Below are positions 914 through 64,000 of a stretch of DNA of 64,000 nucleotides, piece by piece. The notes beneath the pieces were generated by a model, which was not told the origin of the DNA, did not search any database, and was given only the letters and a program-made list of their open reading frames with translations. The translations under genes and the position numbers were made by a program. Position 1 is the first letter of the stretch, and each line of letters starts with the position of its first letter. This DNA is from a virus: the IMG/VR virus record IMGVR_UViG_3300040816_000831. One strand, 5' to 3'.

Positions 914-1178
914 GTTTGATAATCCTACATTTAAGGTTATTATATCCTTTAATTAATCTATGATATTCTCCTTTTGGAATATCAAAAATCATTCCAGGCT
1001 CTAACAAATATGGCAAACAGTTTTCATATTGAAAACGCCATCCCTCGCCCTCGAGTATTTCAACTTCGCGTGGTTCATTATCACGATGCCAAACATATTC
1101 TTCATCATCTCGATCGAGGAAGAATTCTCTTATCTCACCGCCAATTATTTCTTCGGATGCAAAGGGTAGGTCTACCAA
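906..1178 (-). CDS. Small cupin-fold protein
   Basis: WHRD..E..EILEG..W and IPKGEYHRLI cupin-like motifs. Confidence 0.6.
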   Translation of the reverse strand: MVDLPFASEEIIGGEIREFFLDRDDEEYVWHRDNEPREVEILEGEGWRFQYENCLPYLLEPGMIFDIPKGEYHRLIKGYNNLKCRIIKHG

Positions 1179-1543
1179 AAGTAATTACCTCCGCCTTTTA
1201 ATCCTAAGTCTTTAGCGTACTTAGGTAATCTACAAGCCCAGTAACCCGCTTTCGTTTTATCAGTCTTTGTATCACAGTTATGTCTTGAAGCAAAGTTTCT
1301 TGCAGCATCACGGTCATTTATCTTTGATGATAAACCACCTTTCTTATCTCCAAAATTAATCTTCATTACATTACCTGTTTTTGGATTCTTTACGTATACA
1401 ACGTATTTACTTGGACCACCAGACCTTTTAGGTTTGTTTAATTCTGGTCCTTCAATCATTGGTTGTTCCAAAGGTACGTGTTGACCAGTCTCTTCGTATA
1501 AACCGAATGTTGTTGTGAACTCTTTAAAATTAACCAAACTCAT
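1172..1543 (-). CDS. Conserved T4-like virion protein (DUF6321-like) with CTS-like N-terminus
   Basis: NFKEF...LYEE leader; FASRHNC...AGYWAC motif. Confidence 0.55.
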   Translation of the reverse strand: MSLVNFKEFTTTFGLYEETGQHVPLEQPMIEGPELNKPKRSGGPSKYVVYVKNPKTGNVMKINFGDKKGGLSSKINDRDAARNFASRHNCDTKTDKTKAGYWACRLPKYAKDLGLKGGGNYFW

Positions 1544-1880
1544 GGCCAGCTACTCTCTTCATTTGTTTTGTATACTCTTTAAAATCTGGTTTAGACTTAT
1601 ATAACTTAATAGTTACTTCATCTCTGTCTTTACCTTTAATTCTCCAATTAAAACCTTTTTCTTTATGCTCAGGACTTGTTGTTTGTACGACTCTTCTTTT
1701 ATATCCATCTTCCCAAGTTTCTTTTTTACCTGAACCTTCTGATGCTTGCTTCATAGCCTTTGCTGTAGGAGCACCTTTCTCTCCTTTTTTACGCATTGGT
1801 CTACCACTCTTTCTTTTCTTATGAATATTGGCCCAGAGTCCTGCGCCTTTTTCATCTAGAAATGTCTTGAATGTTATCAT
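1530..1880 (-). CDS. Putative internal head protein
   Basis: MITFKTFLDE capsid-targeting-like leader; GLWANIHKKRK...GAPT basic motif common in aquatic T4-like phages. Confidence 0.6.
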   Translation of the reverse strand: MITFKTFLDEKGAGLWANIHKKRKSGRPMRKKGEKGAPTAKAMKQASEGSGKKETWEDGYKRRVVQTTSPEHKEKGFNWRIKGKDRDEVTIKLYKSKPDFKEYTKQMKRVAGHEFG

Positions 1881-2383
1881 TTTAACCTTCTATCTTTAAT
1901 TTTCATATCAGGATTTTTTTCAATTTGTTTTATTGTATCAGAAATTTTATCAAATGATTTAGTTATCTTTGCAATATCTGCTTTATACATTGCTTTTTCT
2001 TCTTTAGAGAGTTCATCAATCATTTTTCTTTCTGTTTCGAGTCTTAATCTTGCATCAATATAATGTACTTTTGCTGTTCTTAAATCTTCTGCTGATTTAG
2101 CTTTTTTCATAGCTTTTTCAGCTTTTCTAGTAGCTCTTGCTAGTTTGCTATATCTACCGTATAAGCCTGATATACTCCACTTAGTACCATAATATAATCC
2201 TTGGCCGCCCTTAACCATTATTTTAACTAAAATTTTAGTTATGTTCCATGTTATTTTTAAAACATCATAGATAAATTCTTGAACAAGAATTGTTGGGTCT
2301 GACGATTTAGCTAGAGTTCTTACAAGATCGCCTCTATCGTCTAAAAATTCTTTTATTTCTGAATGTTCTTTAAATGTTTTCAT
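1877..2383 (-). CDS. Putative internal head protein
   Basis: MKTFKEHSEIKE leader. Confidence 0.55.
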   Translation of the reverse strand: MKTFKEHSEIKEFLDDRGDLVRTLAKSSDPTILVQEFIYDVLKITWNITKILVKIMVKGGQGLYYGTKWSISGLYGRYSKLARATRKAEKAMKKAKSAEDLRTAKVHYIDARLRLETERKMIDELSKEEKAMYKADIAKITKSFDKISDTIKQIEKNPDMKIKDRRLK

Positions 2384-2616
2384 TTTTTTATGTCGTACCT
2401 AAATGTTTTATTTTTTTCTTGGCCTTTTTTCGTTATTTTAAATCCAGCATATTTTGCTAATTGTTGTATAAATGGATAATGCTTTTCAAAATTTCCTCTT
2501 AACTTATCTTTAAGAATTTTGTCGCGAATTTCTTTCCACAAAACATCTGCCATATCCATATCGGCCATTACTAATGGTCCTTCCTCTATTTTAGCATGCT
2601 CTTTGAAATTCTTCAT
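2380..2616 (-). CDS. Putative internal head protein (start revised to MKNFKEHAKIEE)
   Basis: TAATG overlap with the upstream stop at 2616; CTS-like leader. Confidence 0.55.
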   Translation of the reverse strand: MKNFKEHAKIEEGPLVMADMDMADVLWKEIRDKILKDKLRGNFEKHYPFIQQLAKYAGFKITKKGQEKNKTFRYDIKK

Positions 2617-2957: not shown

Positions 2958-2959
2958 GA

Positions 2960-5968: not shown

Positions 5969-5986
5969 TTATACCCTTGGTTCCCA

Positions 5987-7228
5987 TTAGCCTGGATTAT
6001 CCCAGCCTTTTATAATATCTTTGCTGAAATTATTAGTAGAAAATTCTAATCTGTCTACTAATTTAACAGCACCACCTTCCATTCGATCAATAGCCACAAA
6101 GCCTTCAACGCCGGTGACTTTAAATCCGGATTTAGTTTTTACAAACGTACCCATATTATTGAGTTTGTTTAGTTTATTTATAATAATTAATTTGCTATCT
6201 GTCACGTAATTATGTAAATCAAATATTAATTTTAATTGGTCTAAGTTTTCTTTACTAAAAAACTCTAATAGCTCATTTCTTTTATCTATTTGTACTTGTT
6301 TACCTGCATCAGAAGTTCTTTTATCAATAGCTTTAGCATATCTATCATTAACAAACATTATTAAACCTTTGGCATGACGCGCAGTATTTGTAATTCTTTG
6401 ACCTTTTCTTACTTCTCTATTGTTATATACATTAATAATTAAGTTTAATTCTTTATTTTCTTCTATTTCTTTTAATGATTTAGAAGCAATCTTTTTAAAT
6501 ATCTTACCAGCTTCTGATAAATTTTTATTTAATTCTAATGTATCTTCACGAGTAAGAGTTGCTGTTCCTGATACATCTTTAAGCGTTGCGTCGTCCATCC
6601 AAACATCGCTAGTTCTTTTTAATTTACCAACTATATCTCTACCAAATTCAGCTTTCATTGTTTCAAATGATTTCCCACTATATGATGTATGCCATATAAT
6701 ACCAATCTTTGCTCTTTGTATCTCTTTTGCTAATTTCGTATTGAGAGGTACAGCATAGAGGATAGTATTAGGATGGAAAGTAATATGTCCAACTCCATTT
6801 ATATTCTCCTTTTTTAAATCGCTTTGGTCAAACATAAAATCGCCTTGTATCACATCTTTAATGCCAAGGTCTTTTAAATTATCAAAAGCCAGTTTTAATT
6901 TTTTACTTAAATCACCAGATGTATCAGCATCGATATCTGCATGGCTTTTATATACTTTTGGATTTGCGTTGAATATTCCTTTTTTAGCTACGAAAAATTG
7001 ACCATCATTTGGGTCTTCTCCACAGAATAAGGCGGGGGCTCCGTCCCACTTAACAGTAATGTCTATAGGTGCTTTAGCATTACCACTCAACATATCCCTA
7101 AGCGATCTTAGCGCTAGGATAGCTTGGCGAGCCCCCTTAACTCCACCGTCAAGAATTAAATCCTCAATATGTGTCATATGAGTATTTTTTCCTGCGGCCT
7201 CAGATAAGTATGTAGTTAATCGTTTCAT
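5987..7228 (-). CDS. DUF6267-like protein with ATP-dependent ligase/covalent nucleotidyltransferase motifs
   Basis: TVKWDG (motif I), IQGD (III), EGFV (IV), AVKLV (V); MKRLTTYLSE leader. Confidence 0.6.
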   Translation of the reverse strand: MKRLTTYLSEAAGKNTHMTHIEDLILDGGVKGARQAILALRSLRDMLSGNAKAPIDITVKWDGAPALFCGEDPNDGQFFVAKKGIFNANPKVYKSHADIDADTSGDLSKKLKLAFDNLKDLGIKDVIQGDFMFDQSDLKKENINGVGHITFHPNTILYAVPLNTKLAKEIQRAKIGIIWHTSYSGKSFETMKAEFGRDIVGKLKRTSDVWMDDATLKDVSGTATLTREDTLELNKNLSEAGKIFKKIASKSLKEIEENKELNLIINVYNNREVRKGQRITNTARHAKGLIMFVNDRYAKAIDKRTSDAGKQVQIDKRNELLEFFSKENLDQLKLIFDLHNYVTDSKLIIINKLNKLNNMGTFVKTKSGFKVTGVEGFVAIDRMEGGAVKLVDRLEFSTNNFSKDIIKGWDNPG

Positions 7229-8445: not shown

Positions 8446-8450
8446 AGAAC

Positions 8451-8458
8451 TATTTATA
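8451..8458 (-). promoter_or_regulatory. T4 late promoter TATAAATA driving the internal-protein operon
   Basis: Exact consensus, 5 nt upstream of the ATG at 8445. Confidence 0.8.
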
Positions 8459-12956: not shown

Positions 12957-12985
12957 ATTATAACATAAAATCAGTGAGTTGTAAA
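12957..12985 (-). promoter_or_regulatory. Early promoter for bS21-uvsX, embedded in the last codons of the upstream gene
   Basis: TTTACA-N17-TATAAT. Confidence 0.75.
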
Positions 12986-14145
12986 CTGTTTTTTTCATAT
13001 TCATAGGTTCTTTTTTTATTATCCTGTATTAGGAATTTAGTATCAATCATTTCAAGCTGATTGTTTAAATATTTTTGAACCATTTTTGCAGCATGCTCTG
13101 CTGTAGTCACTGGCACATTTTGGCATATATGGTTAAGTGACCTTTTAGGTTCAAGCAATATAAAATCTTTTGGTAGTTTCATAAGAGATAAAGCTTCTCT
13201 TACTGTTAAGTATCTATCTTCATCCGGATGAGTTAAGCACGTTGGCATATGTCCAACAAATGCTCCTATTTTATCTTTAGGAATCTCTGTAGTTTTTCTC
13301 ATGATATTACCACCAGCTTTGAGCTTATGATATTGCCTATCGCATTTCTTTGCAACATTATCATATCCATTTTCTCTCATCCATTTAGCTACTTCTTTAT
13401 ATGTTGTTCTTTCTTCAATGTAGTCCATTGGGTTTGTTGTCTTTTCTATTTTATCTTGAAATTCACTATGTGATATACCACCTTCTAATACTTCAAGAAC
13501 ATATCGATAATATGGTTCTTCAGAAGGTTTCTTTTCATTACAAAGAATTTGACTCATTGGGTCATCATCTTTTCTTTCAACTTCTCTTATATCATCAGCA
13601 ATCATTGTAGGTCTTTCTAGTACATATTCAAATAATGGTACTTCATTACCTTTCCAAAAGAAATAGAATGTTCTATCTCGTACTTGGCTGAGTCCATGTA
13701 GTATAGATTTTGTTTTAAAGATACTAAAAGTATATCCATTATCTTCTCCTATCTTCCTCAATCTTCTTACAACGGGTTCTCCCATCTTACTTGCAAGCCT
13801 TGGTGCGTTCTCTCCCCAAAATACTTTTGGTTGTACTTCACTAAGTACATATTCAGCAGATGTAAACATCCATTCGTTCATAGGATTATTACTTGCAGCT
13901 GATGGACTAAGTGAGCTGAGCCCTGCACATGGGCATACAGTATTAATCACATTAACTTTTTCTGTGTAACTCGCTCCCTCTGAGAGGTTCAAATATGGGA
14001 CCTCATGGTTATAATGATTTAATAAGTGAGATTCATTAGCTTGAAAGCCTTCATATGTCATAATATACTTTGGTCTTTCTCCAAAGACATTTTCCATTGC
14101 TATTGTTTCTCCACCTATTAGTGGTACTATACTCGCATAACTCAT
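12958..14145 (-). CDS. DNA C5-cytosine methyltransferase homolog with atypical SAM-binding motifs
   Basis: CPCAGLS (IV), GENA (VI), QVRDRTF (VIII), RYLTVREA (IX); motif I reads VPLIGG and motif X reads CQNV. Confidence 0.8.
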   Translation of the reverse strand: MSYASIVPLIGGETIAMENVFGERPKYIMTYEGFQANESHLLNHYNHEVPYLNLSEGASYTEKVNVINTVCPCAGLSSLSPSAASNNPMNEWMFTSAEYVLSEVQPKVFWGENAPRLASKMGEPVVRRLRKIGEDNGYTFSIFKTKSILHGLSQVRDRTFYFFWKGNEVPLFEYVLERPTMIADDIREVERKDDDPMSQILCNEKKPSEEPYYRYVLEVLEGGISHSEFQDKIEKTTNPMDYIEERTTYKEVAKWMRENGYDNVAKKCDRQYHKLKAGGNIMRKTTEIPKDKIGAFVGHMPTCLTHPDEDRYLTVREALSLMKLPKDFILLEPKRSLNHICQNVPVTTAEHAAKMVQKYLNNQLEMIDTKFLIQDNKKRTYEYEKNSLQLTDFML

Positions 14146-15122
14146 GCAAAAAACTCCTCTAGTCCAGCCTTTTCAATTCCATTCCAATATGGATAGAACT
14201 CTCTGGATAAATGTATTGATTGTGGTTTCTCCATATATTTAAAATCGAGCTTACCTTCTTTATTAAAGAGATGACCGGTCCATCTTTTGATACCGTATTC
14301 TTTCTCTATGTAATCGTTAAATTTATTTCTTGCATCATTTCTTTCTGACCAAGAACCGTAAAATGGTTGTCCTTTATAATATCCTGATTGCGGTATTCTT
14401 CTACTTACATCTTCTATTGGAAGCAACTCATATATCTTTGCATTATACTTATGAGCTTCTTCAATATACCTATCAGCTAAATCTTCTATCTTTTGTCCTA
14501 GTCTAATTACATGATGTCTTATATCAATATTACCAAAATAGCATTCAAGCTCTTCATAATCGTAAGGAATGTATTTATCAAATCCTTCGTTTAAAGCTCC
14601 ATTTAAAGTTTTGAATGGAACACTGTTTACTGTCCAACCTGGTCGATACATGCAGATGGAATGACTATCACCAATAACTATTTTAGAAGTTGGATTAGGA
14701 TAGTCGATTCTTTCAGCTTCATTAAACATGCGTTCTAGATTTTTAAGGTCTACATCATGCCATTCCGGTTGAACCTCTTTCTTAGCCGATTCCAGTTTTG
14801 ATTTAACCATTTCGTGATACGGCGGGAAGTCGATTCCAATTGAAAAGACTCTGCCTTTGAACTTAGAAAAGTTGACAGTGTTCTTAACATAAGGAAAACC
14901 GTATACGCCACCAAACATATTAATTCCACCACTCCAATCAGTGCCGTGATAGACCCAAAGACTATCATAATCATTGTGGTCTTCAATTTCTCCACCGTAG
15001 TTAACATCGCAGTTTCCATATTTCTCCTTTATCATATCGCCATACATTACTCCTGCAGCTCCTCTATGAGAAGCAGCTCTCTTAGCTATTGGAATAAATG
15101 GACAATTAATTATATTTTTCAT
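14142..15122 (-). CDS. SGNH-hydrolase-like protein with C-terminal clamp-binding-like motif
   Basis: IGDSH, FGNID and SIHLS blocks; ends GLEEFFA. Confidence 0.55.
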   Translation of the reverse strand: MKNIINCPFIPIAKRAASHRGAAGVMYGDMIKEKYGNCDVNYGGEIEDHNDYDSLWVYHGTDWSGGINMFGGVYGFPYVKNTVNFSKFKGRVFSIGIDFPPYHEMVKSKLESAKKEVQPEWHDVDLKNLERMFNEAERIDYPNPTSKIVIGDSHSICMYRPGWTVNSVPFKTLNGALNEGFDKYIPYDYEELECYFGNIDIRHHVIRLGQKIEDLADRYIEEAHKYNAKIYELLPIEDVSRRIPQSGYYKGQPFYGSWSERNDARNKFNDYIEKEYGIKRWTGHLFNKEGKLDFKYMEKPQSIHLSREFYPYWNGIEKAGLEEFFA

Positions 15123-15129
15123 TAGATAT

Positions 15130-15158
15130 ATTATACCATACTTTTGTTCAAATGTAAA
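15130..15158 (-). promoter_or_regulatory. Early promoter (probably a leaderless transcript)
   Basis: TTTACA-N17-TATAAT, 7 nt from the ATG. Confidence 0.8.
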
Positions 15159-15163
15159 CGTTT

Positions 15164-16228
15164 TTATTCAAAGAATTCACTAAGGGTATTAGTCTTTTGT
15201 ACGCGCGCCACGCGTCTACGCGCGCATGCTCGCTCGTCTTCTCTTATCTGTAGGTATACACCAAACTGACATGACAACACTTCAGTTCCGTAGTATTTAA
15301 GAGAATCTTGTTCATATTGAAATAATTTACTACCGTCTTTCTTATTTATATTGAAAGCTTTTGGATGAAATACAACATCTTTTGTTAATCCTATTTCATC
15401 TGAATTTTCTCTCATATAGTATATTGCTTCGTCATACAATTTCTTTGGAGCTTCTGGCCACATTAATTGTATTGTATACACAGCTCCTGGACCCGGCGAT
15501 ACAAATCTTTGGTCATGATGATACTTCATTTGTGGTAATACAGATGAAGAAGCAGCTCCATGGAATCCGTAATAATGTCCTATGCCAGGTTGTTCTCTTA
15601 AAAGAGTATAAATCTCTGACATATGATTACATTGTTGCATTCGTTCTAAGAAACCAGTATCTCTAAAAGAAGATACCCATTCACAAACATCAACTGCATG
15701 AAACTTTCTATCTGGTTCGTTATACTTTTCACGACAATAGTTTCTAGCAGCAGTTTGTATAGATGTGTGTAATTCTGTTGTTCCCCAAATTGGTTGCTTA
15801 TTCTTTATTGCTTTATCTAAATTATTACGAACATATTGAATATAATCTTTATTTCCATTTGCTATTCTATCAAAATCAACAAAGACGTTATCTTCTCCTG
15901 AAGCAAGAAAATGAACTCCTCTTCCACCATAGAAATGAGATATAAAAGTATTACCTACAATATTCATTATTGTAGTATCTAGACTTGCTATCTCTTGACC
16001 AATAAATCTCATACGGTCATCAAGTGTAATTGTTGGATGAAAATATTCTACATCTTCGCCAAGACCAAAATCATTCTTGCCATGACGATTTACTGATTCA
16101 TATTGTTCTTTTGAATATCCAAGTTGTATATTAGACCTTTCATTAACTTTATATAGAAACCAATTGAACTCTTTCATGAGTTCTTTATCGTAATTCGACC
16201 AATCGTAATTATATTTAGTACTTGACAC
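15164..16228 (-). CDS. aGPT-Pplase1 / 5hmdU-DNA-kinase helical-domain-like protein
   Basis: ER..I, YF...LDDR, PGIG and FVSPGPGA motifs resemble this DNA-glycosylase-fold family; ends TLSEFFE. Confidence 0.6.
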   Translation of the reverse strand: MSSTKYNYDWSNYDKELMKEFNWFLYKVNERSNIQLGYSKEQYESVNRHGKNDFGLGEDVEYFHPTITLDDRMRFIGQEIASLDTTIMNIVGNTFISHFYGGRGVHFLASGEDNVFVDFDRIANGNKDYIQYVRNNLDKAIKNKQPIWGTTELHTSIQTAARNYCREKYNEPDRKFHAVDVCEWVSSFRDTGFLERMQQCNHMSEIYTLLREQPGIGHYYGFHGAASSSVLPQMKYHHDQRFVSPGPGAVYTIQLMWPEAPKKLYDEAIYYMRENSDEIGLTKDVVFHPKAFNINKKDGSKLFQYEQDSLKYYGTEVLSCQFGVYLQIREDERACARRRVARVQKTNTLSEFFE

Positions 16229-16628
16229 GTTCCTCGTTATCTCTCTTTAAATGAACAATTGATATATCAGGACATCTTTTTTTAATCTCTTTGATTTGAA
16301 TTGGGTCATCTTCGAAATGCATTTCTATTTCTACTCCCAAGTCTTTTAACATATTAATCATTTGTCCTTTAAAGATACCAGAAGCTTTTCTGCCATATAG
16401 TGGATTTTCTTTTACTCCATGAGTCACTTTATGATTTTTTAGTTTTCTTTCAAGTGGATTCATGTAAAGAGTATTATATATTCCTCTAGATTCTAGCATT
16501 TTTACTGTAGCTTCTCTATCAGCAAAAGGCCGCCCAGTAATGATGATGTCATCTTTACCGGGTCTTACGCCTGTGGTGCTTTCACCAAAATAGATTACTC
16601 CATCGATGTCAAACGAATTAATTTTCAT
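16215..16628 (-). CDS. HAD-superfamily phosphatase (start revised to MKINSFDIDG)
   Basis: FDIDG, ITGR, K and FEDD motifs. Confidence 0.85.
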   Translation of the reverse strand: MKINSFDIDGVIYFGESTTGVRPGKDDIIITGRPFADREATVKMLESRGIYNTLYMNPLERKLKNHKVTHGVKENPLYGRKASGIFKGQMINMLKDLGVEIEMHFEDDPIQIKEIKKRCPDISIVHLKRDNEERVKY

Positions 16629-17910
16629 AATCATTCTTCGCATCTTGGAAGGTGTGAGGCAAATCTGCTGCCTTCGGTCTATTCTCTTTGAGCTGTGGAG
16701 TAGTAATATCTGTCAATACTCTCCTAGCTAAAGCATCACATTCAAATTTGGCATCTTGAGTTTTGAGCTGTAATGGAGGAGTCTTTTGAGTCCATGCTGA
16801 TGGTCCTCTTAAATATCCTACAATGCCCATCTCTGAAGCTACCTTACAAAATCTAATTGCTGAAACAACAACTCCACCAGAGTTTGGAGAGTCTTGAACT
16901 GAAAGTCTAGCTGACATTTCATATCTTGCTCCTGCAAATCCATAAGCAACCATATCAAAGTTAGCTATTTTATTATCAGATGAGATATAATCTCCACCTG
17001 GTTTTTGTTGAACAGTAAGAGATGGACCAGCAAATAATGTCATACCTGCAGTTGATTCTCCTCTTACGCTGTTTTGTCCTTTTAAAACATTTTCTTTTGA
17101 TACATGTTTGTTATGTAATCTATATTGTTTTGCCATATTCAAGAAGTCAGTATTTGCTGTTCTTCCTGTTCTTATATGCTCTTGTCCTTGTGTAGAACCA
17201 GCAGCCATATTCATTTGAATGTGTTGTGTTACCATTAAACCTGAATCTAACATAGCACCTTGTAGAACTTCTGACATTCTTGAAGCTCCCCAGGCTGACC
17301 TCATATCTGAACCAACAATTGTAAGTCCTGCATCTATGAATCTTTGTTCAGTTATCATAGCATCTTCTGTTGAAATCAATGTCGGTATACAGTTTACGAA
17401 ATGTATTCCTGCATCTAACGCAACATCAATCCAGTATTTAGAAGCTTCTTCTGAACCAACTGGTAAATAGTTAATGAGTACATCTACATCATGATACTGT
17501 AGTAACTCAACAGTTCTTTCAAAAGATTCTGCTGGTACAGCTCCATTTACAAATGTGACTTCATCTGGATAATCATGCATGTGAGGAGCTATTCCGTCCA
17601 TTTCTGGAGCTGAATAGACCATTGCATCATTATTTACAGCTGAACTATTTGATGTAGTTGTTATTTTTTCGACATGGTCCATAGCGCAATTAGGTTGAGC
17701 TCTTAAAGCTTTTGCTAATTTTTTATTTACTTTCCTTTTATCGATATCAAATCCAATAACAAACTCGATGTCGTGTACTGAATATCCGCCGATATCTTCA
17801 TACATTAGACCAATTTTGTCTTCTGGATTTTCGTTATAATATTGTACACCTTCCACTAAAGACTTTGCACAACTTCCGACGCCGATTATTCCGGCTTTTA
17901 TTTTTGACAT
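16618..17910 (-). CDS. ino1: myo-inositol-1-phosphate synthase
   Basis: GVGSCAKSLVEG NAD fold, NYLPVGSEEA, FVNCIP, NTDFLNM, SK, DNK, DSPNSGG. Confidence 0.9.
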   Translation of the reverse strand: MSKIKAGIIGVGSCAKSLVEGVQYYNENPEDKIGLMYEDIGGYSVHDIEFVIGFDIDKRKVNKKLAKALRAQPNCAMDHVEKITTTSNSSAVNNDAMVYSAPEMDGIAPHMHDYPDEVTFVNGAVPAESFERTVELLQYHDVDVLINYLPVGSEEASKYWIDVALDAGIHFVNCIPTLISTEDAMITEQRFIDAGLTIVGSDMRSAWGASRMSEVLQGAMLDSGLMVTQHIQMNMAAGSTQGQEHIRTGRTANTDFLNMAKQYRLHNKHVSKENVLKGQNSVRGESTAGMTLFAGPSLTVQQKPGGDYISSDNKIANFDMVAYGFAGARYEMSARLSVQDSPNSGGVVVSAIRFCKVASEMGIVGYLRGPSAWTQKTPPLQLKTQDAKFECDALARRVLTDITTPQLKENRPKAADLPHTFQDAKNDYEN

Positions 17911-17972
17911 ATTATTCTCCTTATATCAGTTTATTTGAGTGAGAAATTTGACTGGCGTACCAGAGTAGCTCA

Positions 17973-18278
17973 CTATATACTATTAGTTATAACACTTATC
18001 AGACCACTTCCAAGGATAATGACTGCTGCTGTGTTTAAAATTATCAATGCTCTATCTTTCCAGATAAGAGCTACTATTAACCAACCGAATGTTCCAACTA
18101 AGGAAAACGCTTGGTCATAGAGAGCAAGGTCAGGATTAGACCTGCTTGCCATAGCAATTAAAAGAATAGCTGATGCTACCCATTTAATATACCAATCAAT
18201 TGTATACTTAGGAGTTGCGCTCTTAAATATACGCTTTGAATTTTTTATTTCTTGTTCGTTAAATTTCGGTGAATTCAT
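17973..18278 (-). CDS. Small multi-pass membrane protein (DUF6552-like)
   Basis: WYIKWVAS...W.DRALI.LN pattern; three hydrophobic segments. Confidence 0.6.
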   Translation of the reverse strand: MNSPKFNEQEIKNSKRIFKSATPKYTIDWYIKWVASAILLIAMASRSNPDLALYDQAFSLVGTFGWLIVALIWKDRALIILNTAAVIILGSGLISVITNSI

Positions 18279-18699
18279 ATTTTACATTAGCCTCTTTAAA
18301 TATTTCATGTGTTTTTTCTATTGCTTCTTTCCATCTATCTGGAGTATTTTCTGAAAGCGATACAACTCTAGATATTCCTGCTTGTATTATACCTAATGAG
18401 CAATGACCACAAACTGGTAAACCATAAATATATAATATAGAATCTTTTAAAGATATTCCATTTTCTGCAGCATTATATATACAATTCATTTCTGCATGAA
18501 CTACATATTGATACTTTGTTTCTCTATGATTATATCTTTCTTTACTATCTTCAATACCTTTAGGAAATCCATTATATCCTGTTGCTAATATTTTTCTATC
18601 TCTTACAGCAATTGCACCTATTTTTCTACTTGGGTCTTTACTCCATGTAGATATTTCACGAGCAATATCAAGAAATCTTTTATCCCACTTATTTAACAA
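18259..18699 (-). CDS. cd: dCMP deaminase (likely TTG start at 18699)
   Basis: SKDPS, GYNG, HAEMN and PVCGHC zinc motifs. Confidence 0.9.
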   Translation of the reverse strand: MLNKWDKRFLDIAREISTWSKDPSRKIGAIAVRDRKILATGYNGFPKGIEDSKERYNHRETKYQYVVHAEMNCIYNAAENGISLKDSILYIYGLPVCGHCSLGIIQAGISRVVSLSENTPDRWKEAIEKTHEIFKEANVKYEFTEI

Positions 18700-19366
18700 G
18701 GTCAAAGTGCCTCTCATACACATGTAAGTTTTGTACTTGCCAATAAATTTTACCACCACTTTTAAGTGGATGACCATTATAGTATAAATCTTTTTCTAGT
18801 TTTTCTAATACGTATTTTTGCCAAGCGTAATCATTTCGATAACCATATACAACGTCATTACTTCTCATTTGAACTACACAATGTAATTGTTCATCTCTTA
18901 TATAATATGTAACAGCATTTGTACAAATAAAATCATTCTTACCATCTTCTTTAAATTCGCGCCAGATACTTGGTCTTTGATATACCATTGAAGCTCTACG
19001 AGAATCTGGATTAATTTCACTTAGTTCTTTTACTACTTGATTATATTGTCTATGAAATTTTTTACTGAATATAAGATGACCATAATTAGAATTGATTTCA
19101 CCATAATCATTTGCAGAATATTCCCATGCTGCTGGCGACTTACCATATATTTCAGCAAGTTTATTAATATTAGTTGACCTAGAATTATACCATTCTATTT
19201 CAGCATCAATATATTCTTGATTGGGTTTACCAAAAATTGATGGCTTATCTGCTAGAAAAGACGCAGCAAATATTTCGATTGTTTTACAACCAGTCTTATC
19301 ATCGGTAAACTCTTTGTTTTTAAGTTTATCGATAAACGTATTTGCGATATCTTTAGTCTTCAACAT
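18689..19366 (-). CDS. gp42: dCMP hydroxymethylase (gp42-like, thymidylate synthase fold)
   Basis: DFICTN, MRSNDVVYGYRNDYAWQKYVL and LHVY closely match T4 gp42, including the dCMP-specifying Asp. Confidence 0.85.
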   Translation of the reverse strand: MLKTKDIANTFIDKLKNKEFTDDKTGCKTIEIFAASFLADKPSIFGKPNQEYIDAEIEWYNSRSTNINKLAEIYGKSPAAWEYSANDYGEINSNYGHLIFSKKFHRQYNQVVKELSEINPDSRRASMVYQRPSIWREFKEDGKNDFICTNAVTYYIRDEQLHCVVQMRSNDVVYGYRNDYAWQKYVLEKLEKDLYYNGHPLKSGGKIYWQVQNLHVYERHFDLVK

Positions 19367-19682
19367 TACTTACCTTTTTGTTGAACATATCTCTTGTTGG
19401 GTCTTGGCCTTCCATTTTACCTCGAGCATAAGCAACAGCAAAAGAACAATAGTTAATCATATCTTTATAAGTATCTTCAATACTTTCGAAGTTTGGGTCA
19501 TCGGCTGATTCAAGCAATGAAGTTGCTCTCATCATTTTACCAAGAATAATATCATGAATCGTATCAATGCCACGTCTATAATGCATGGCTTGGACTACTG
19601 TTGATTCAGAACTTTGATAGTCTTGGGATTTTTTAGTTTGTAGTTCTGCGCATTCTTGCAGGACTCTTAAGCTTTCTTTCAT
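19353..19682 (-). CDS. Nucleotide-modification-associated domain 1 (DUF1599/MazG-like)
   Basis: KKSQDY...K..R...ESIEDT..D..NY pattern. Confidence 0.7.
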   Translation of the reverse strand: MKESLRVLQECAELQTKKSQDYQSSESTVVQAMHYRRGIDTIHDIILGKMMRATSLLESADDPNFESIEDTYKDMINYCSFAVAYARGKMEGQDPTRDMFNKKVSNVED

Positions 19683-19747: not shown

Positions 19748-20170
19748 TTAATATATTTTACTACTTGTAAATTTTCGTAGTTCATCACCTTTACCTTTAA
19801 AGGTTGTTATCATTTTCATTTTACTTATTGGCCAACCACACATTACTCTTCCATCGCGTGTAGTTATTTCTTTTGTATCATTTCTATCAATACACTCCCA
19901 TAATATTGCATCAGGGGAGTTATCATATTCAACAAAGAAAAGACGGTCTACTGATTTACATTTTGGTACTTGATTTTTCCAAGCTGTATTTACAGTAAAG
20001 TAACCAAAGGGATGTCTATTTTGGCATTTAACTTCTGCTGTTTCATCAAGTATCATACCATCTTTTTTGCTATCATATTTGTCAGTACTTTGTTCACCAC
20101 TAAAGTAATCAAAAACTAATTGTTCGGCTAAAAAGCCCATCTTTTCTTTATTTGTTTTATATGTATTCAT
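19748..20170 (-). CDS. Small PD-(D/E)XK nuclease-like protein
   Basis: GFLAE...KDG...EVK. Confidence 0.55.
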   Translation of the reverse strand: MNTYKTNKEKMGFLAEQLVFDYFSGEQSTDKYDSKKDGMILDETAEVKCQNRHPFGYFTVNTAWKNQVPKCKSVDRLFFVEYDNSPDAILWECIDRNDTKEITTRDGRVMCGWPISKMKMITTFKGKGDELRKFTSSKIY

Positions 20171-20601
20171 TATCTACTAAGAGATTTATTGTATATAATA
20201 CCTTCTGATATTAATACTTCTCTATTCCACATGTGTCCTTTTTCAGTGTCATCTTTTGACTGACCAAAATAAGGAACTGCATGACAATCTTTTATCATTT
20301 GTTGATTAACACTAAAATTAGAATTACCTATAAAAAGTTCACCAAGTATTCTGCCAAACTTTCCTTTATCATGAGATTGTAATTGAACCTCTTGGTCTTT
20401 TAGTATTTTCTTTAAGTGAGCTTTTGAAGCTAAGCCATAAAACTTTTCTTCTAAATCTCTAGTTCTAGATTCTGGAGTATCAATACCCATCATTCTAACT
20501 CTTTGTTTTTTGTAGACCATTCCAAATCCTAAATCGATATCTACATCAACTGTATCTCCATCTACGACTCTTGTGACCTTTACGTTATATCTATAGCTCA
20601 T
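20170..20601 (-). CDS. Thermonuclease (SNase) family nuclease
   Basis: VVDGDT, RMMGIDTPE, GKFGRIL. Confidence 0.9.
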   Translation of the reverse strand: MSYRYNVKVTRVVDGDTVDVDIDLGFGMVYKKQRVRMMGIDTPESRTRDLEEKFYGLASKAHLKKILKDQEVQLQSHDKGKFGRILGELFIGNSNFSVNQQMIKDCHAVPYFGQSKDDTEKGHMWNREVLISEGIIYNKSLSR

Positions 20602-20874: not shown

Positions 20875-21387
20875 CTATTTGTAGAATATGTGGTTATTTA
20901 TTATAACAGTTTGATTGAGCGAATCTGCCCAATAAGGAAGGACTCTATCATTGTGATAATGTGTTGACCCCTCTGTAATATCCGGATATGCTCCTTGTAT
21001 GACATCTCTTGCTATGTGTAATGATTTAAGCCATGTTGGACTATCTTCTGGGTCGTCTGATTTGCCATCACAAAACCAACTAAATTGGCATTGATTACGC
21101 ATAGGAATCATTTCGCCTAACCAGTTTTCTTTCCACTTAGCTTGGTAAATAACTCCACAAACATCCGTTGGATAATTTGGATGTTTTGTTCTATTTAGAA
21201 CAACATGAGCAACAGCTACTTTTCCAGCTAATGGTTGATTACCAGCTTCAAAGTAAATGTTTTGAGCCATACAATAAATATCATTGTTGGCGTCTGAAGC
21301 TTCAACCTTTGGAACAGCAAACATTACTGCACCTAGCATGAAACCAAATAACATTCCATATAGAAATGCTTTATATTCATCTGTCAT
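20875..21387 (-). CDS. Cell wall hydrolase (SleB/Hydrolase_2) with N-terminal signal or TM segment
   Basis: CMAQNIYFEA, VLNR, CQFSW, THYH, HIFY. Confidence 0.9.
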   Translation of the reverse strand: MTDEYKAFLYGMLFGFMLGAVMFAVPKVEASDANNDIYCMAQNIYFEAGNQPLAGKVAVAHVVLNRTKHPNYPTDVCGVIYQAKWKENWLGEMIPMRNQCQFSWFCDGKSDDPEDSPTWLKSLHIARDVIQGAYPDITEGSTHYHNDRVLPYWADSLNQTVIINNHIFYK

Positions 21388-22973: not shown

Positions 22974-22981
22974 AGGTATAT

Positions 22982-23010
22982 ATTATACCATACTTTTAGT
23001 AGTTTGTAAA
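22982..23010 (-). promoter_or_regulatory. Early promoter
   Basis: TTTACA-N17-TATAAT. Confidence 0.8.
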
Positions 23011-23013
23011 CGA

Positions 23014-46669: not shown

Positions 46670-48388
46670 CTATGAACCTGAGATCTCGGAGAATTCAACT
46701 CCGGACCTTGTTGCTACGAAGCTCAATGTAATAAAGTTAATACTTCTTGCAGGCTTGATAAAGATATCTGCTACAAATTTATTACCGTCAATTACTGAGC
46801 TAGTGTTGTTAGTGTTATCACAGATTACTGAAAAATCTGTAAGTCCACGTCTACCTTTGACGTCTCTTAAGAACGGTTCAACTAAGTTTCTGAACTGCGC
46901 TCTTGTAAATTCGTCGTTAAATTCGAATAGTTGCGCTTTAGCTGCTGTGCTAACCGCTTTTTCTAATACGATAAAGAGTCTACGTACATTTATTCTATCG
47001 AATGCTGAAGGTCTGCTTAATAAAGTTTTATCTCCAAATAGTAAAGTACCTTGTCCAGGTAATGATACTATAGGATTGACTCTTGCTTTATATAAAGAAT
47101 CCCTATCTGCTTTCTTAGGATTAAATGCTAATTTAGTTACTCCTAAAAGTTGACCCCTGTTTATTCCTGCTGGAGAGAACCATGCATCTGCTACTGAATC
47201 AGTATTAGCGCAAAGTCCTGCCATGTGACCAGAAGCTGCTATATATCTGTATTTGTCATTATATTTGTCATATACATATAGTGCTGTTGAATCACAAGAA
47301 GCATAAGATGTTGATGTTAAACCATCAGCAAAAGCTTTTACGCTTGCTGCTGGAGTAGCATTATTAACAGTGTCTTCTAATGGTGGTGAAATAAATGCCA
47401 TACAATCTTTTCTTGCATTTACAATAGATATTAAATCTTCTGCTATTACTTCATCGCCATCGGCGTCTGCAGCTGCAAAAAGTAAGTTAACATCTACAGT
47501 TTCAGCATCTTCTAAAAGATCGAATCCTGCGGCTATTTCGCCAGTTGTTGGTGTGTTATCATCAACTCCACCTGCAAGTGAAGCTTCAATTGCTGATGCG
47601 TGTGTGTGGAAGCTATTAGACGCTTCTGCGTCTCCTGTTCCACCAGTTACTGCTTTCGCTGCAACTAAAGTAAATCCTGCTTCTAGTAAGTTTGTATCAT
47701 GGTCAATCCATCTGATATAGTTAGATTGATTGTTAATAACATCCTTATAGTAGTTAGTACTACCGTCGTCTTTTTTAGCGTCAGAGGCTTGTGATACAAA
47801 TCCAAAAGTTTCTAATACTGTACCTGGTGTACCGCTTAATGCGCCATCTTCATCTATAACAGCAATATGCAGTTCGTCATTAGTGACTCCTGCTGCAGTT
47901 GCAGATGCTGATGTACCTGGTGCAGCATCAAAATTACTAGCATAAGTCCAACCACTGAATGGTGAAGCTCCTGCTGTTATCATTGATACCTTTATGCTAT
48001 TACCCAGTACTCCTGGATGTTTAGCTGCCCATGCCCCCAAATTAAGACTTCCATCTGCATAATTATTCAAATAATGTTCATTATTTTTTATCAGCTGTCC
48101 TGTACCTTGCGCGGTCGCGTTTAAATGACCTGAAGCTACTCGAACCACTTTAAGAGCATTACCATACTTTAAAAAAGATGCTGCTACTAGAAAGTGTTTA
48201 GCTGTGGAATCGTCTGGTGTACCAAACGTAGCTGCAAGTTCGTTTTCTGAACCTACCGTTACAATTTGTTCCACTGGACCCCAGTTGAATGCTCCTGCAA
48301 ATCCACCAATGCTGGTTGATACTGCTGGGACTACATTCGTGGCGTCGATTTCTTGAACCTGAACGCCCGGTGATACTTGAAATGCCAT
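46670..48388 (-). CDS. gp18: Tail sheath protein
   Basis: SPGV...E.D, WFSPAG..RG, FDRINVRRLF; late promoter at 48451-48458. Confidence 0.97.
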   Translation of the reverse strand: MAFQVSPGVQVQEIDATNVVPAVSTSIGGFAGAFNWGPVEQIVTVGSENELAATFGTPDDSTAKHFLVAASFLKYGNALKVVRVASGHLNATAQGTGQLIKNNEHYLNNYADGSLNLGAWAAKHPGVLGNSIKVSMITAGASPFSGWTYASNFDAAPGTSASATAAGVTNDELHIAVIDEDGALSGTPGTVLETFGFVSQASDAKKDDGSTNYYKDVINNQSNYIRWIDHDTNLLEAGFTLVAAKAVTGGTGDAEASNSFHTHASAIEASLAGGVDDNTPTTGEIAAGFDLLEDAETVDVNLLFAAADADGDEVIAEDLISIVNARKDCMAFISPPLEDTVNNATPAASVKAFADGLTSTSYASCDSTALYVYDKYNDKYRYIAASGHMAGLCANTDSVADAWFSPAGINRGQLLGVTKLAFNPKKADRDSLYKARVNPIVSLPGQGTLLFGDKTLLSRPSAFDRINVRRLFIVLEKAVSTAAKAQLFEFNDEFTRAQFRNLVEPFLRDVKGRRGLTDFSVICDNTNNTSSVIDGNKFVADIFIKPARSINFITLSFVATRSGVEFSEISGS

Positions 48389-54766: not shown

Positions 54767-57700
54767 TAGTCTGTTACCTCCGTAAGATTAAATTTATATT
54801 TTTTACCATTTCTTCTATTAATTAAGAATAAATCATCAGCACCTTCTTGTATTGTCCAAGAACCATTTGTTCCATCAACTTCATTGCCTTCTCTTGTATA
54901 TGCATTTCCTTCCATATCCTCGCCTTCCGGTGGCATATTTGATAAGTTAAGGTCATTAGTATAGATATTTCTATAACCAGATGAAGCAGAACCTAAATCA
55001 AAAGTATTATTTACTCTTGGAAGTTGATGACCGGCTTCTGTCCAAATAGTATGGTAATCTGCCATTGTATCATTACCTATACCAAAGTTTCTATTACCGG
55101 CCCCATAAGGATTAATGCCCATTACAACTTTATAAGCACATGCTGGGTTTGCATCATTTAAAAAATCAGATTCAGTAGCACCATTAATAAATGCCATACT
55201 TATTTCAGCGTCTGAAGTATTAGCTATTCTAAAATGACCCCAACTTGCATAAGAGTTAGAGGCTATTACTCCCATTCTACCACCACTTACATGTAACTTT
55301 CCTGTAGGACTATCAGTTCCAATACCAACGTTGCCGAGATATGGTTGTAATACTAAATTATATGCGGCAGTAGCATTGTAGTTACTAACATCAATATAAT
55401 ATGCGCCTGTACCATTATCCATAGCACCTATTCTAAGAGCATCACTTCCGGCGATATTTCCGTTAAAGTAAGCTACTGCACCAGAGACAATAGTTGCTGA
55501 ATTTGTTACTGCACCACCACCCGCTCTTGATACATAAAATGGTAAACGTGCTGTCGTGTCGGCAACAAGAGCCCTTCCAGCAACTTGAAGATTCCACGAA
55601 GGTGAAATTACTCCGATACCAACGTTGCCGTTTGTATGAATACGCATACGCTCTGTATATGATCCACCACCCATAAACTTAACAGGAGCATTTGCAGACC
55701 AGCCGTATTCTAATTCATTACTACTATTCGCCCGCATAATTGTGCGAATAGTTCCGCCAGTATCTTTAGTTCGTATCTCTAGTGCGTTATTTAGGAGTAT
55801 ATTACCTCCTGATATGTGCAGTTTTTCTGCTGGAGAACTTGTTCCGATACCAACGTTGCCTGAGCTATTAATTCTTATTCCTACATTAGAATCAGAAAAG
55901 CCTATCCCATGCAATATTTTAAATTCGTCATCCGTATCAACACCCCATGACCACCATTGGGCAGCATCATTTGAATCAGTAGAAGCAATTAAATTAAGTG
56001 CTTTTTTCGATGTGCCAACTGCACTTAATTGAGTTAATCTATCTTGTGTAGGCTCAGCACCTTTAATATGTAATGATGCATCTGCAGTACTACCTTCAGT
56101 TGCTCCTGTATTTATGATTTGCATTGAAGCATTATAGATATCAAGTTTTGAATTATTACCTACATTATTTGTTCCAATTCCAATACTTCCATTACTTAAA
56201 TCCATTGTCAATATATTATTTGTAATAAAAGAATTTCCAGCATCATTTAATGAACCAAATTTACCAATTCCTCCATCTACAACAAAATTTAAATGTTTAT
56301 CATCTGTAGAACCTGAGTAATCAATTAAATCTAAATGAGCTCCATCGCCACCATTTATTACAATCCTTGCTCTTTGACTTGTATCTTGTACTTGTAAAAC
56401 AGTGGCTGCATTATCTGTATAACTTGCCCATGAATTAGGACTATCAGTTCCAATTCCAACATTGCCTAAACTATCAATACGCATAGCTTCTGCTGGAGTT
56501 CCTGCATGATTAGTCCAAAACACCAAATTTGTTGGATTACCACTAGCTGCTGTGTTTTCAGCATAAAGACCAACACCACCATTAAACGAAACAGTTCCAC
56601 CATTACTTGAAACAGTATAAGTAGTACTTGTAGCTCCTAATCCAATTCCTGATGCCTTTGGATAAGTTCCAGTAGTGCTGTGATTTACATTTAAAACACT
56701 ACCACTATTAATAGTTCCTGCAAAGGTAGCATTTTGTGATGCATCTAGTGTAAGAGCACTAGATGCACCAGTGAAGAAACTCATTGTATCTCCATTAACA
56801 CTTACTCTATTGCCATTATTTGTTGAGCTACTATCTTCAATAATTATAGCCGCACCTGCATCTGTTGATTCAAATTTAGCAACATAATCGTATGGTGTGG
56901 AAGTAACTAAAGGAAAAGAACCAATAGAATTGGAAAATATTCCTGTATTAGTAGTAGTTGTAAAAACGCCCGCAGAGATAGTTCCTGTTACGTCTATGCC
57001 TGTTGAGGTGGCGGTTAGTATATCGCCTGTACCATTTAAATGTATCCTGTAACTACCATCAGAAACAGCTCTGTTATACCAAGGCTGATTAGAACCTTGC
57101 TTTATACCAAACTGGTAATCTGAGCCTGTTAAATCTAATCTCTCTTCACTTGCATCCCAAAAGAACTTAGCCGTAGTTCCTGTATCTTCGTAAAAAGAGA
57201 TGTCTCCGTTGTTGGCTATGTTTAGCCTAGTATCCCCATCAGTATATAGCCTTACAGCCCCTGAGCCTGTGCCTGACTGATAAACAACAAAATCTTCCGT
57301 TGAGTCTCCACTTACGCCAACGTACCAAGGAACAGACGATACTGCACTTTCAAAACTAATTTGAGAGCCATTGTTTGTACTATTAATAGCGATACCAGTA
57401 AGACTGGTTGTGTTTACAGCTATAGCACCATCAACAGTCAAACCATCCATTGTGGCTGTACCTGTTACATTAATATCTTTATTAAAGTCCCATTCGTCGT
57501 TAGTACCATCATAGATAATTGTGGCTGATGCTCCATCTACTGTAATTCCAGCGCCATTAGCTGCAGCCGCATTGGCTGCTCCTGATGCTAATGTGAGATT
57601 TAAATCATCTACTGTCATTGTAGTAGAATTAATTGTAGTTGTTGTACCATCAACTTGTAAATTACCAGCGATAACGACTGTTCCAGTATTGTTTCCTACT

Positions 57701-58164: not shown

Positions 58165-58172
58165 TTAACTAT

Positions 58173-62137: not shown

Positions 62138-62205
62138 TTATCTATTTATATCCCAGAGTTTTCATTTGCTGTTTTTTTAGCTTCTTTTATTGCCATTGTT
62201 TATCC

Positions 62206-62532
62206 TTATGCTTCCGGTGTTATATTAAACCCGTCGGGGTATGCGTCAATTGTCGCTTCTATTTCTGCTTTCATTTCGTTTAATCTTGTACTTCCTACTC
62301 TTGTTTCTATCCATGATTGTAAAGTTGTTTTATTAATTGAAGTTATCTCAGAAAAAGTATCAGTTGATACGCCTTGCTCTACGTTATAGTCTAACGCACC
62401 CCCTAGAGTGGCAGACTTGCCATCCTTTGTTCCTGTAATAGTCCAACCTATTTCTTGTATAAGGTCTCTTTGTTGACTTTCTATATTGTAAGGAACTATT
62501 TTATTTATTTTTATATTCCATGTGTATTCCAT
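62206..62532 (-). CDS. Fibre-associated small protein
   Basis: YTWNI...IGW...G...F..I....L..WI pattern typical of genes beside aquatic phage fibres; AGGAG RBS. Confidence 0.6.
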   Translation of the reverse strand: MEYTWNIKINKIVPYNIESQQRDLIQEIGWTITGTKDGKSATLGGALDYNVEQGVSTDTFSEITSINKTTLQSWIETRVGSTRLNEMKAEIEATIDAYPDGFNITPEA

Positions 62533-62541
62533 ATTTTTCTC

Positions 62542-64000
62542 CTATGATATAGTGACCGTAAGGTCTTTAAAATCTGTTTCATGGTCACTGCTAGTGTCCC
62601 CTGCTTTTGTAATTCTATAGTAAATTGAGGGGTGAATATAAGCAGGAATATCTATATCAAAGTAGAATCCTTGGTGAGATATAGTTCCATAACTAACTGA
62701 ATGACTACCACTCGATCTTATAATTGTTGCTTCTGATAAAGTTATACTGTTATTAGTATACCCTGAAAGCATTGCACTACAGTATTTTCCTTGATAACCT
62801 GATATATAAACTTCTAATTGAAACCCACCCCAAGCATTTCCTGATGTACCTGTTGGAGCAGGAACAGTTACTCTTACATTTCCACTAAAAGTACCTGAGC
62901 TACCACTCGAGCCAAAAAACGTCCAGTAATTACTAAGATGTCCTGCATCCTTTATTCCGGCTGACGACTGAGCGCACCCATTGATAAGTAGACCACCTTT
63001 TTTAACATGTAAACCAGCAAGATTATTAGGCACAGCACTCTCATTACCAACAGTCATGTATCTATCTGAATCAATAAGTACTGCCTGACTTCCTCCTACA
63101 GATATTCCTAACTTATCAGCAGCTGGCCAATATACACCAGTATTTTCATCATCATATGAAGCAAGACCCGGTAGATTTGCTGCAGTATCGCCTGATGAAT
63201 ATTGATTTGGCCTAATTGAACCACCACTTCCTGTTCTTTTCCATTCTCCTGCAACCGTATCGTTTAGATAAAACTTCATTCTAGTTGCCGTTGTTTGGTC
63301 AGTTTCTATACGATTGTTCATCGTGGTATGAAACCCTAAACCATCTGCACCTACTTTTGCGCCATCTGAAGCAAAAGAGAGTTTTCCATTTCCTGCCGCC
63401 ATTAACCAACCAGTTTGTGAACTAGCCGCATTTATAGTTATACCACCTGCATAAACACCTAAATGATTAACTGTATAAGTCCCTGCAGTATTTGGATAAA
63501 CGTGCCCTACACTTACCGAACCACCAATTCCAACATTGCCTGAATTATCCAATACTAAAACATCAGTAACATTAGAAGCACTACCACTACCACCACCATC
63601 AGCATAGTTAAAATATAGTCCTGAACCTTGAGCAACTGCAAACCAGTCTCTAGCCTGACCAGTATCGCTCCAAACTATTGCTGGTGAACTAGTATCTTGA
63701 ATTACTAAAGCTGCTTGTGAATTAGCGTAACTTGTAGGATTACTCGTATTAATTCCAACGTTGCCTCCATTAAAATAACTAACACCAGCAGTATATATTT
63801 GAGCCTTAACAGTTCCTGCGTCTGATAGTTGTAATATACCATAGTCCTCGGCACCACTACTACCTGTACCTAAAAATGCAATTTCATTAGTTGTATTATT
63901 CTTAACAATGTTAAGGGCGGCGTCTGCTCCGCTTCTATCTATTGTTAACCCTCTTCCTGGATTATCTGTTCCAATACCAACGTTGCCTGAAGAATCTATG
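62542..64000 (-). CDS. Tail fibre protein, 5' end outside the window
   Basis: Frame is open from 63999 to the stop at 62542 (longer than the track call); GNVGI repeats. Confidence 0.8.
   Translation of the reverse strand, partial: IDSSGNVGIGTDNPGRGLTIDRSGADAALNIVKNNTTNEIAFLGTGSSGAEDYGILQLSDAGTVKAQIYTAGVSYFNGGNVGINTSNPTSYANSQAALVIQDTSSPAIVWSDTGQARDWFAVAQGSGLYFNYADGGGSGSASNVTDVLVLDNSGNVGIGGSVSVGHVYPNTAGTYTVNHLGVYAGGITINAASSQTGWLMAAGNGKLSFASDGAKVGADGLGFHTTMNNRIETDQTTATRMKFYLNDTVAGEWKRTGSGGSIRPNQYSSGDTAANLPGLASYDDENTGVYWPAADKLGISVGGSQAVLIDSDRYMTVGNESAVPNNLAGLHVKKGGLLINGCAQSSAGIKDAGHLSNYWTFFGSSGSSGTFSGNVRVTVPAPTGTSGNAWGGFQLEVYISGYQGKYCSAMLSGYTNNSITLSEATIIRSSGSHSVSYGTISHQGFYFDIDIPAYIHPSIYYRITKAGDTSSDHETDFKDLTVTIS

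Follow-up and report, generated by a model that had tools for sequence, protein, structure and literature searches.

What keeps a handful of GATC sites in a phage genome that has shed almost all of them? The question is raised by a 64,000-nucleotide stretch of viral DNA (IMG/VR record IMGVR_UViG_3300040816_000831; the whole stretch is referred to here as the window), in which GATC has been purged and most of the few survivors overlap a second tetranucleotide, TCGA. We compared the GATC sites of the window with null models and with related genomes, and we considered a cluster of predicted DNA modification genes at 12958 to 19682 as the possible source of a protective mark.

GATC occurs 17 times in the 64-kb window, at 1112, 2326, 6085, 7104, 21725, 22742, 22763, 23109, 23657, 25796, 26470, 31169, 42453, 46682, 47518, 55661, and 62714. 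A preliminary description, made by manual scan of the sequence, had listed exactly these sites and overlooked none. Markov models of order 0, 1, and 2 predict 194, 191, and 195 occurrences, and a shuffle of synonymous codons that preserves both the proteins and the codon usage predicts 168.6 ± 9.2 (minimum of 142 in 1000 shuffles), in line with the rough zero-order figure of 150 to 200 given earlier. The Markov observed-to-expected ratio (o/e) of 0.09 is the lowest of all 256 tetramers, and no other 4-, 5-, or 6-mer of the window is comparably depleted. Counting k-mers against Markov and codon-shuffled nulls, the check that the preliminary description had proposed, thus places GATC far below expectation, and the four null models rule out chance or base composition as the source of the loss and of the flank pattern described below. 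The trace of the purge is visible in codon choice. Asp codons in front of a codon that starts with C are GAC 117 times and GAT 11 times, compared with 275 and 965 times elsewhere, as had been noticed by eye, and Ile is encoded by ATC in 3 of 155 cases after a G-ending codon, compared with 205 of 1199 other cases. These data support the conclusion that GATC was purged by selection working through synonymous codon choice at codon junctions.

Survival depends on context to a degree far above chance. Fifteen of the 17 sites are CGATC or GATCG, 12 overlap TCGA, and those at 46682 and 55661 alone lack a CG flank; the earlier tally was identical. Sites without a CG flank number 2, compared with 150 expected from the Markov model or 134 from the codon shuffle, and sites with a CG flank but no TCGA number 3 (26 to 28 or 21 expected), a depletion of ~9-fold. 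Sites that overlap TCGA, as TCGATC or GATCGA, are not depleted (12 observed; 14.5 to 17.4 expected from the Markov model or 13.5 ± 3.7 from the codon shuffle). The enrichment suggested by the preliminary description was significant both for the CG flank (at least 15 of 17 sites; P = 4e-9 in the codon shuffle test) and, among the CG-flanked sites, for TCGA (at least 12 of 15; P = 0.0015). Codon usage or amino acid constraint behind the flank pattern is ruled out, since a shuffle that preserves both yields 20% CG-flanked sites versus the 88% observed. As a word in its own right, TCGA is not avoided (173 observed versus 153 from the order-2 Markov model and 153 ± 10 from the codon shuffle). The exempt context in the window lineage is therefore TCGA and not CG generally: sites with CG-only flanks are lost as fast as unflanked ones and GATCGG is never retained, which rules out generic CpG shielding in this lineage. 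Of the two contexts named in the earlier proposal, CG and TCGA, TCGA stands as the one that is spared and CG in general does not.

The same filter can be followed in relatives. The window carries a T4-like myophage gene set (gp23, gp20, sheath, gp43, gp41, uvsX, uvsW, uvsY, gp44/45, and regA), every long open reading frame (ORF) lies on the minus strand, and the GC content is 34.2%. Its capsid protein is ~61% identical to those of Pelagibacter phage HTVC008M and Methylophilales phage Melnitz. A search for near-identical DNA in cultured phages found none; the close relatives are marine metagenomic contigs. A methyltransferase-like gene in the modification cluster has homologs of only ~30% identity in cultured phages and >2,500 homologs in ocean metagenomes. 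The window phage belongs to a very abundant uncultured clade of marine myophages, and we collected 283 related loci, centered on four genes of the window. For each GATC in aligned non-purged relatives (70 to 86% identity), we asked whether the homologous position was also GATC in a target genome. In non-purged targets, which give the neutral baseline, conservation was 20.6% for sites without a CG flank, 18.9% for sites with a CG flank but no TCGA, and 12.2% for sites overlapping TCGA; in the window, the corresponding values were 1.8%, 2.2%, and 6.3%. By this comparison, only the TCGA-overlapping sites turn over at a roughly neutral rate, and CG-only sites are lost as fast as unflanked ones.

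Contigs of the clade with the window's gene order fall into two states, purged (o/e of <0.1) and normal (~1), even when their methyltransferase-like genes are 84 to 94% identical, and the purge state changes at least six times on the tree of that gene. Seven of eight samples from purged sublineages retain CG-flanked sites only, mostly GATCGA; the window sample retains two unflanked sites. After homologous duplicates had been removed by alignment, 61 purged clade loci held 54 distinct survivors: 28 GATCGA, 10 GATCGT, 4 GATCGC, no GATCGG, and 12 without a CG flank. The empirical baseline, taken from 1193 distinct GATC sites in 95 non-purged loci, has fractions of 0.099, 0.094, 0.045, 0.034, and 0.728 for the same classes, so that, relative to unflanked sites, GATCGA is retained 17-fold, GATCGT and GATCGC ~6-fold, and GATCGG not at all, faring no better than a site with no flank. 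This baseline was used because non-purged clade loci have 2.5 times as many GATCGT (equivalent to ACGATC) as a first-order Markov model predicts, which makes the Markov expectation alone unsafe for relatives; the use of codon pairs such as NAC-GAT-C or GAT-CGT may account for that excess. One apparent GATCGG survivor was excluded from the counts: the end of contig L001 (5980) reads AGATCGGAAG, the start of an Illumina adapter left untrimmed in a public viral contig, and creates a false site. Purged relatives have 25 distinct sites that are not GATC in the window: 11 that overlap TCGA, 9 with a different CG flank, 4 without one, and this artifact.

Flanks also change around sites that persist. 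At some positions that read ACGATC, GATCAA, or GATCTA in non-purged relatives, the purged genomes have either lost the GATC or converted its flank, to give TCGATC or GATCGA; this concerns window sites 6085, 7104, 21725, 22763, 23657, 25796, and 47518. Of 37 survivors in the TCGA class, 6 are the doubly flanked TCGATCGA, compared with 3% in the baseline (P = 7e-4), and CGATCG accounts for 13 of 60, compared with 7% (P = 2e-4). Erasing every GATC costs only ~0.3% divergence, so purging is fast or else spread by recombination. One locus (L107) and two others (L108 and L109) have methyltransferase-like genes a few percent apart and GATC o/e values of 0.93 and 0.00 to 0.04, respectively.

Other purged lineages served as controls. 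A syntenic sister genome (G002; 62.8 kb, ~73% nucleotide identity) lacks GATC entirely (184 expected), the 12 sites expected to overlap TCGA included, although TCGA itself occurs normally (153 versus 161 expected). In nine other GATC-purged T4-like loci from further lineages (92 kb), 18 of 233 unflanked sites and 3 of 74 CG-flanked sites survive, so that no exemption is evident. Because neither G002 nor these nine loci show it, the TCGA exemption goes with the window's phage clade and is not general to GATC purging in marine T4-like phages. The preliminary description had argued for site-specific rather than global protection, and a purge filtered by context, with no such exemption in G002 or the other purged lineages, lends support to that view. 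As a separate observation on G002 (L285 to L288), GGCC is in excess (111 versus 67 expected) and GCGC is in deficit (14 versus 30).

We lean, by a small measure, toward an explanation with two layers, in which a phage-made, TCGA-directed modification would shield overlapping GATC from a GATC-directed nuclease of the host. In the first layer, such a nuclease, present in the hosts that this sublineage infects, would select away nearly all GATC by synonymous changes, for example, GAT to GAC before C or ATC to ATT or ATA after G. The second layer would be a site-specific mark centered on TCGA, weaker at TCGT and TCGC and missing at TCGG. In the GATCGA/TCGATC duplex, GATC and TCGA share their T and C on one strand and their A on the other; whichever of these bases carried it, a mark on TCGA would therefore put one modified base inside the overlapping GATC. 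TCGATCGA would carry one modified base on each GATC strand, which fits the excess of doubly flanked sites. A shielded GATC would go uncut, would be selectively neutral, and would be kept at its expected frequency. While the purge, the TCGA exemption, its recurrence in the clade, and its absence from the control lineages are shown, we infer that there is a modification, and likewise which base it marks (C, T, or A), its enzyme, and the nuclease behind the purge. The most likely source of the mark would be the phage's own 5-hydroxymethylcytosine (5hmC) hypermodification cluster, with sequence selectivity contributed by a methyltransferase homolog or by a context (CpG) preference of a kinase-like enzyme, and the mark would be a 5hmC-derived adduct rather than plain C5 methylation.

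The cluster (12958 to 19682) is a run of overlap-coupled minus-strand genes upstream of uvsX. In gene order it encodes a DUF1599/Nmad1 protein, a gp42-type deoxycytidine monophosphate (dCMP) hydroxymethylase, a dCMP deaminase, a DUF6552 protein, a myo-inositol-1-phosphate synthase homolog, a small protein with a weak match to the polynucleotide kinase family, a protein resembling 5-hydroxymethyldeoxyuridine (5-hmdU) DNA kinases, a 326-amino-acid protein, and a C5-cytosine methyltransferase homolog. The first four, from the DUF1599/Nmad1 to the DUF6552 protein, were assigned by Pfam and occupy 17973 to 19682. The hydroxymethylase ORF (18689 to 19366) matches the T4 gp42 structure 1B49 with an E value of 1.1e-67 and retains the cytosine-specifying Asp (RNDYAW; the D179N mutant structure 6L18 has RNNYAW). 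The phage DNA is thus probably 5hmC substituted, as judged from this gene, which makes plain C5 methylation doubtful. The synthase homolog and the small protein follow at 16215 to 17910 (PDB 1GR0, E value of 5.7e-49; phrog_415), and the kinase-like protein and the 326-amino-acid protein at 14142 to 16228 (Pfam PF18723, E value of 1.2e-11). These last two are fused in some phages, since phrog_17781 (795 positions) spans both ORFs. The region between the gp42, dCMP deaminase, and DUF6552 genes and the methyltransferase homolog is a hypervariable tailoring island with at least three different cassettes: inositol-phosphate synthase, kinase-like enzyme, and 326-amino-acid protein in the window; a TET-associated-type glycosyltransferase, an epimerase, and a uridine diphosphate-sugar dehydrogenase in G002 (L287, 7827 to 12954); and a 492-amino-acid nucleotidyltransferase in a further relative, G006 (L291, 79 to 3907). 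The methyltransferase homolog is the constant partner, next after the cassette in all three.

This homolog (12958 to 14145, minus strand, 395 amino acids) is a divergent member of the C5-cytosine DNA methyltransferase family (Pfam PF00145, E value of 1.6e-15, 57.9 bits against a cutoff of 22). Its predicted structure (predicted local distance difference test score of 84) matches 8YF3 (CmoX), M.HhaI, M.HaeIII, and DNMT1 with a Foldseek probability of 1.0, and MET1 is also among the top matches; the best PDB match by sequence has an E value of 1e-3 from the single sequence and 1e-6 from a profile. C71-P72-C73 (motif IV), E112-N113-A114 (motif VI), and Q154/R156/R158 (motif VIII, QxRxR) are invariant in 17 homologs. 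Motif I, which binds S-adenosylmethionine (SAM), reads PLIGG and not FxGxG, and the Asn of the motif X GN is missing: in a profile alignment, an invariant Gln342 stands opposite the Asn of the M.HaeIII GNAVP and opposite Arg350 of the carboxymethyl-transferring CmoX, a residue equated with M.HhaI Asn304 in the CmoX paper (PMC12783734). Gln at a position that contacts the cofactor or the transferred group hints at an unusual cofactor or reaction. A regular-expression search of the window for PCQ or DPPY motifs found nothing; the homolog reads PCA. In a bolder version, which we think improbable, the homolog would not be a methylase at all. It would read TCGA and act on existing 5hmC with the kinase-like and inositol-phosphate enzymes, installing a bulky, undescribed adduct at T-hmC-G-A only. 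If so, the phage would have three defenses, namely, global 5hmC, a TCGA adduct that also closes a TaqI-like gap, and mutational erasure of the GATC sites left uncovered.

Published work on modified DNA bears on what such a mark would have to do. DNA with 5hmC (T4gt) resists DpnII, MboI, and Sau3AI and is cut completely by DpnI and TaqI, and TaqI cuts glucosyl-5hmC DNA completely as well (PMC7653180 supplement). Since 5hmC DNA is open to DpnI, the threat to GATC may be a DpnI-like enzyme that depends on N6-methyladenine (m6A) and acts after Dam methylation by the host, in which case a block on one strand would suffice. Since TaqI cuts 5hmC DNA, TCGA may likewise be a gap in global 5hmC protection that a dedicated mark would close. 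Phage C5-methyltransferases are known to set the sequence context of postreplicative hypermodification (PMC8256090; bioRxiv 10.1101/2023.12.21.572611), and 5-hmdU DNA kinases show dinucleotide preferences (PMC7653180).

Several points weigh against a phage-made TCGA mark. The case for it is a footprint in sequence throughout, and it requires that a hemimodified site be enough for protection. Fully 5hmC-substituted DNA is no substrate for an ordinary C5-methyltransferase, and the methyltransferase homolog combines a degenerate motif I with Gln in place of the cofactor-contacting Asn or Arg, which makes its activity as such an enzyme questionable. The characterized phage C5-methyltransferases linked to hypermodification favor GpC, not CpG, and no encoded enzyme has proven TCGA specificity. 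The gene by itself predicts neither purge nor exemption: orthologs that are 84 to 91% identical occur in relatives with normal GATC, which rules out its presence as a predictor of the purge. G002 has a homolog that is 44% identical overall and no exemption; the two proteins are only 34% identical in the putative target recognition region, and a different specificity of the G002 enzyme is plausible from that divergence. G006, with a homolog of 54% identity and a different cassette, is partly purged and yet shows some sparing of CG-flanked sites (8 of 23 versus 13 of 121). Finally, in pooled relatives, the TCGA class is itself partly depleted relative to the Markov expectation, with an o/e of 0.34 in a set that includes redundant loci.

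The exemption might instead belong to the nuclease. A host GATC enzyme that cuts poorly before GA, and less poorly before GT or GC, would leave these sites harmless without any modification and would produce the same graded flank classes, the same flank conversion, and the same excess of doubly flanked sites. Flank effects on Type II cleavage rates are known, and the search for a modification enzyme of proven TCGA specificity came up empty, as this explanation would have it. We nevertheless regard it as unlikely: an exemption of ~50-fold that goes with a self-complementary 4-mer, whichever flank it lies on, resembles a second recognition event, it is missing from the syntenic sister G002 and from other GATC-purged marine T4-like lineages, and it tracks the phage clade through at least six changes of purge state. 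We also know of no characterized GATC enzyme with such flank behavior, which speaks against this account.

Alternatively, a shield at TCGA could consist of m6A of the M.TaqI type, supplied either by a widespread methylase of the host or by an adenine methyltransferase whose gene lies beyond the window, with hemimethylated GATC blocking an enzyme of the MboI/DpnII type. The chemistry of this overlap is textbook, as TCG(m6A)TC blocks MboI; TCGA is precisely the exempt word, and the window is only 64 kb of a larger genome. Within the window, however, no ORF has a (D/N/S)PP(Y/F/W) motif or a match to an N6-methyltransferase family, and a mark made by the host would not be carried reliably from host to host. 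M.TaqI also modified 5hmdU DNA poorly (PMC7653180), though this is a loose analogy only, and taken together we consider adenine methylation decidedly unlikely. The phage could also be avoiding a GATC nuclease of its own, used, for example, to degrade host DNA, with its genome cleared of the sites. The lability of the purge state among close relatives is what a mobile nuclease gene would produce; still, no match to MutH/Sau3AI (PF02976) was found in five related records (272 kb, fragments) or in the Pfam-scanned window ORFs, and the TCGA exemption would stay unexplained unless a modification were added. Such self-avoidance is very improbable.

Restriction-site avoidance in lytic phages, of which the GATC-free Staphylococcus phage K is an example, resembles the purge in the window: a single 4-base palindrome is strongly depleted in particular lineages through synonymous substitutions, with no need for a cognate methylase. 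The avoidance of short palindromes has been surveyed generally (PMC4687349). Unlike ordinary site avoidance, the purge described here stops at a second word, TCGA, flanks are converted, and doubly flanked sites are in excess; we found no published account of such a context exemption. Avoidance has long been known, and avoidance that halts where a second word overlaps would let a protective, sequence-specific mark be recognized by its footprint. The geometry is that of known overlapping-methylation blocks, in which a CG or TCGA mark lands on one GATC strand (Sau3AI blocked by GAT followed by 5-methylcytosine from CpG methylation; MboI blocked by m6A from M.TaqI at TCGATC). Those blocks are in vitro properties of enzymes and use 5-methylcytosine or m6A, whereas here the overlap would have filtered the sites of a natural genome during evolution and the chemistry would probably involve 5hmC-derived bases.

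With the phage systems that combine a C5-methyltransferase, TET, and a glycosyltransferase (PMC8256090) and with CmoX/CmoY (PMC12783734), the window shares a C5-methyltransferase fold in a hypermodification cluster and modification in a short context. Those enzymes favor GpC, while the window footprint points to TCGA, a CpG context; the window cluster has no TET or CmoA, and its precursor would be made at the nucleotide level by the gp42-type hydroxymethylase. At motif X, the window homolog has Gln where known enzymes have Asn (SAM) or Arg (carboxy-SAM). The T-even phages, with global 5hmC and glucosylation (gp42, gp56, and alpha- and beta-glucosyltransferases), resemble the window in the gp42 homolog with its cytosine-specifying Asp, with a dCMP deaminase and a MazG-like pyrophosphatase nearby. 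Unlike theirs, the window cluster has the inositol-phosphate synthase, the kinase-like enzyme, and the methyltransferase homolog, and no T4-type glucosyltransferase was matched among the Pfam-scanned window ORFs up to ~40.8 kb. Because GATC had to be purged, global modification does not seem to protect it. The footprint predicts a concrete target, TCGA, for an uncharacterized modification system, and suggests that hypermodification at specific sites, a defense whose worth has been doubted in the literature, can protect at overlapping sites while mutation handles the rest. Repeated flips of purge state among near-identical relatives suggest that the GATC nucleases of ocean hosts select strongly, locally, and quickly. 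Applied to whole genomes, this reasoning could reveal modification motifs without any data beyond the sequence.

Individual survivors illustrate the classes. TCGA lies on both sides of the GATC at 1112 to 1115, within TCGATCGA, and the same doubly flanked word encloses the site at 25796 to 25799 inside the DNA polymerase gene, where the sole aligned non-purged relative has ACGATCAA. At 21725 to 21728, the window has ACGATCGA and purged relatives have TCGATCGA or no GATC. The site at 6085 to 6088 is within TCGATC and corresponds to ACGATC in non-purged relatives, so its flank was converted to TCGA. TCGATC also encloses the sites at 26470 to 26473, 31169 to 31172, and 62714 to 62717. GATCGA encloses the site at 47518 to 47521 (GATCAA or GATCGA in non-purged relatives) and the site at 42453 to 42456 inside the gp23 capsid gene, which is retained in five of seven purged relatives. 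A CG flank alone is present at 2326 to 2329 (GATCGC) and at 7104 to 7107 (GCGATC; GTGATC in most non-purged relatives). The two sites that lack a CG flank are AGATCT, at 46682 to 46685 close to the 3' end of the sheath gene, and TGATCC, at 55661 to 55664.

Four survivors form a cluster in a variable segment (22742 to 23660), with GATCGA at 22742, 22763, and 23657 and GATCGT at 23109. The nearest relative in the comparison (G001) joins window position 22998 to 23574 with 7 bases between. Four of the 17 sites lie in or beside the segment from 22999 to 23573; a small class I SAM methyltransferase gene at 23014 to 23628 (Methyltransf_23/11) is absent from that relative. Directly downstream of the modification cluster, the window encodes a staphylococcal-nuclease homolog (20170 to 20601) and a cell wall hydrolase (Hydrolase_2; 20875 to 21387).

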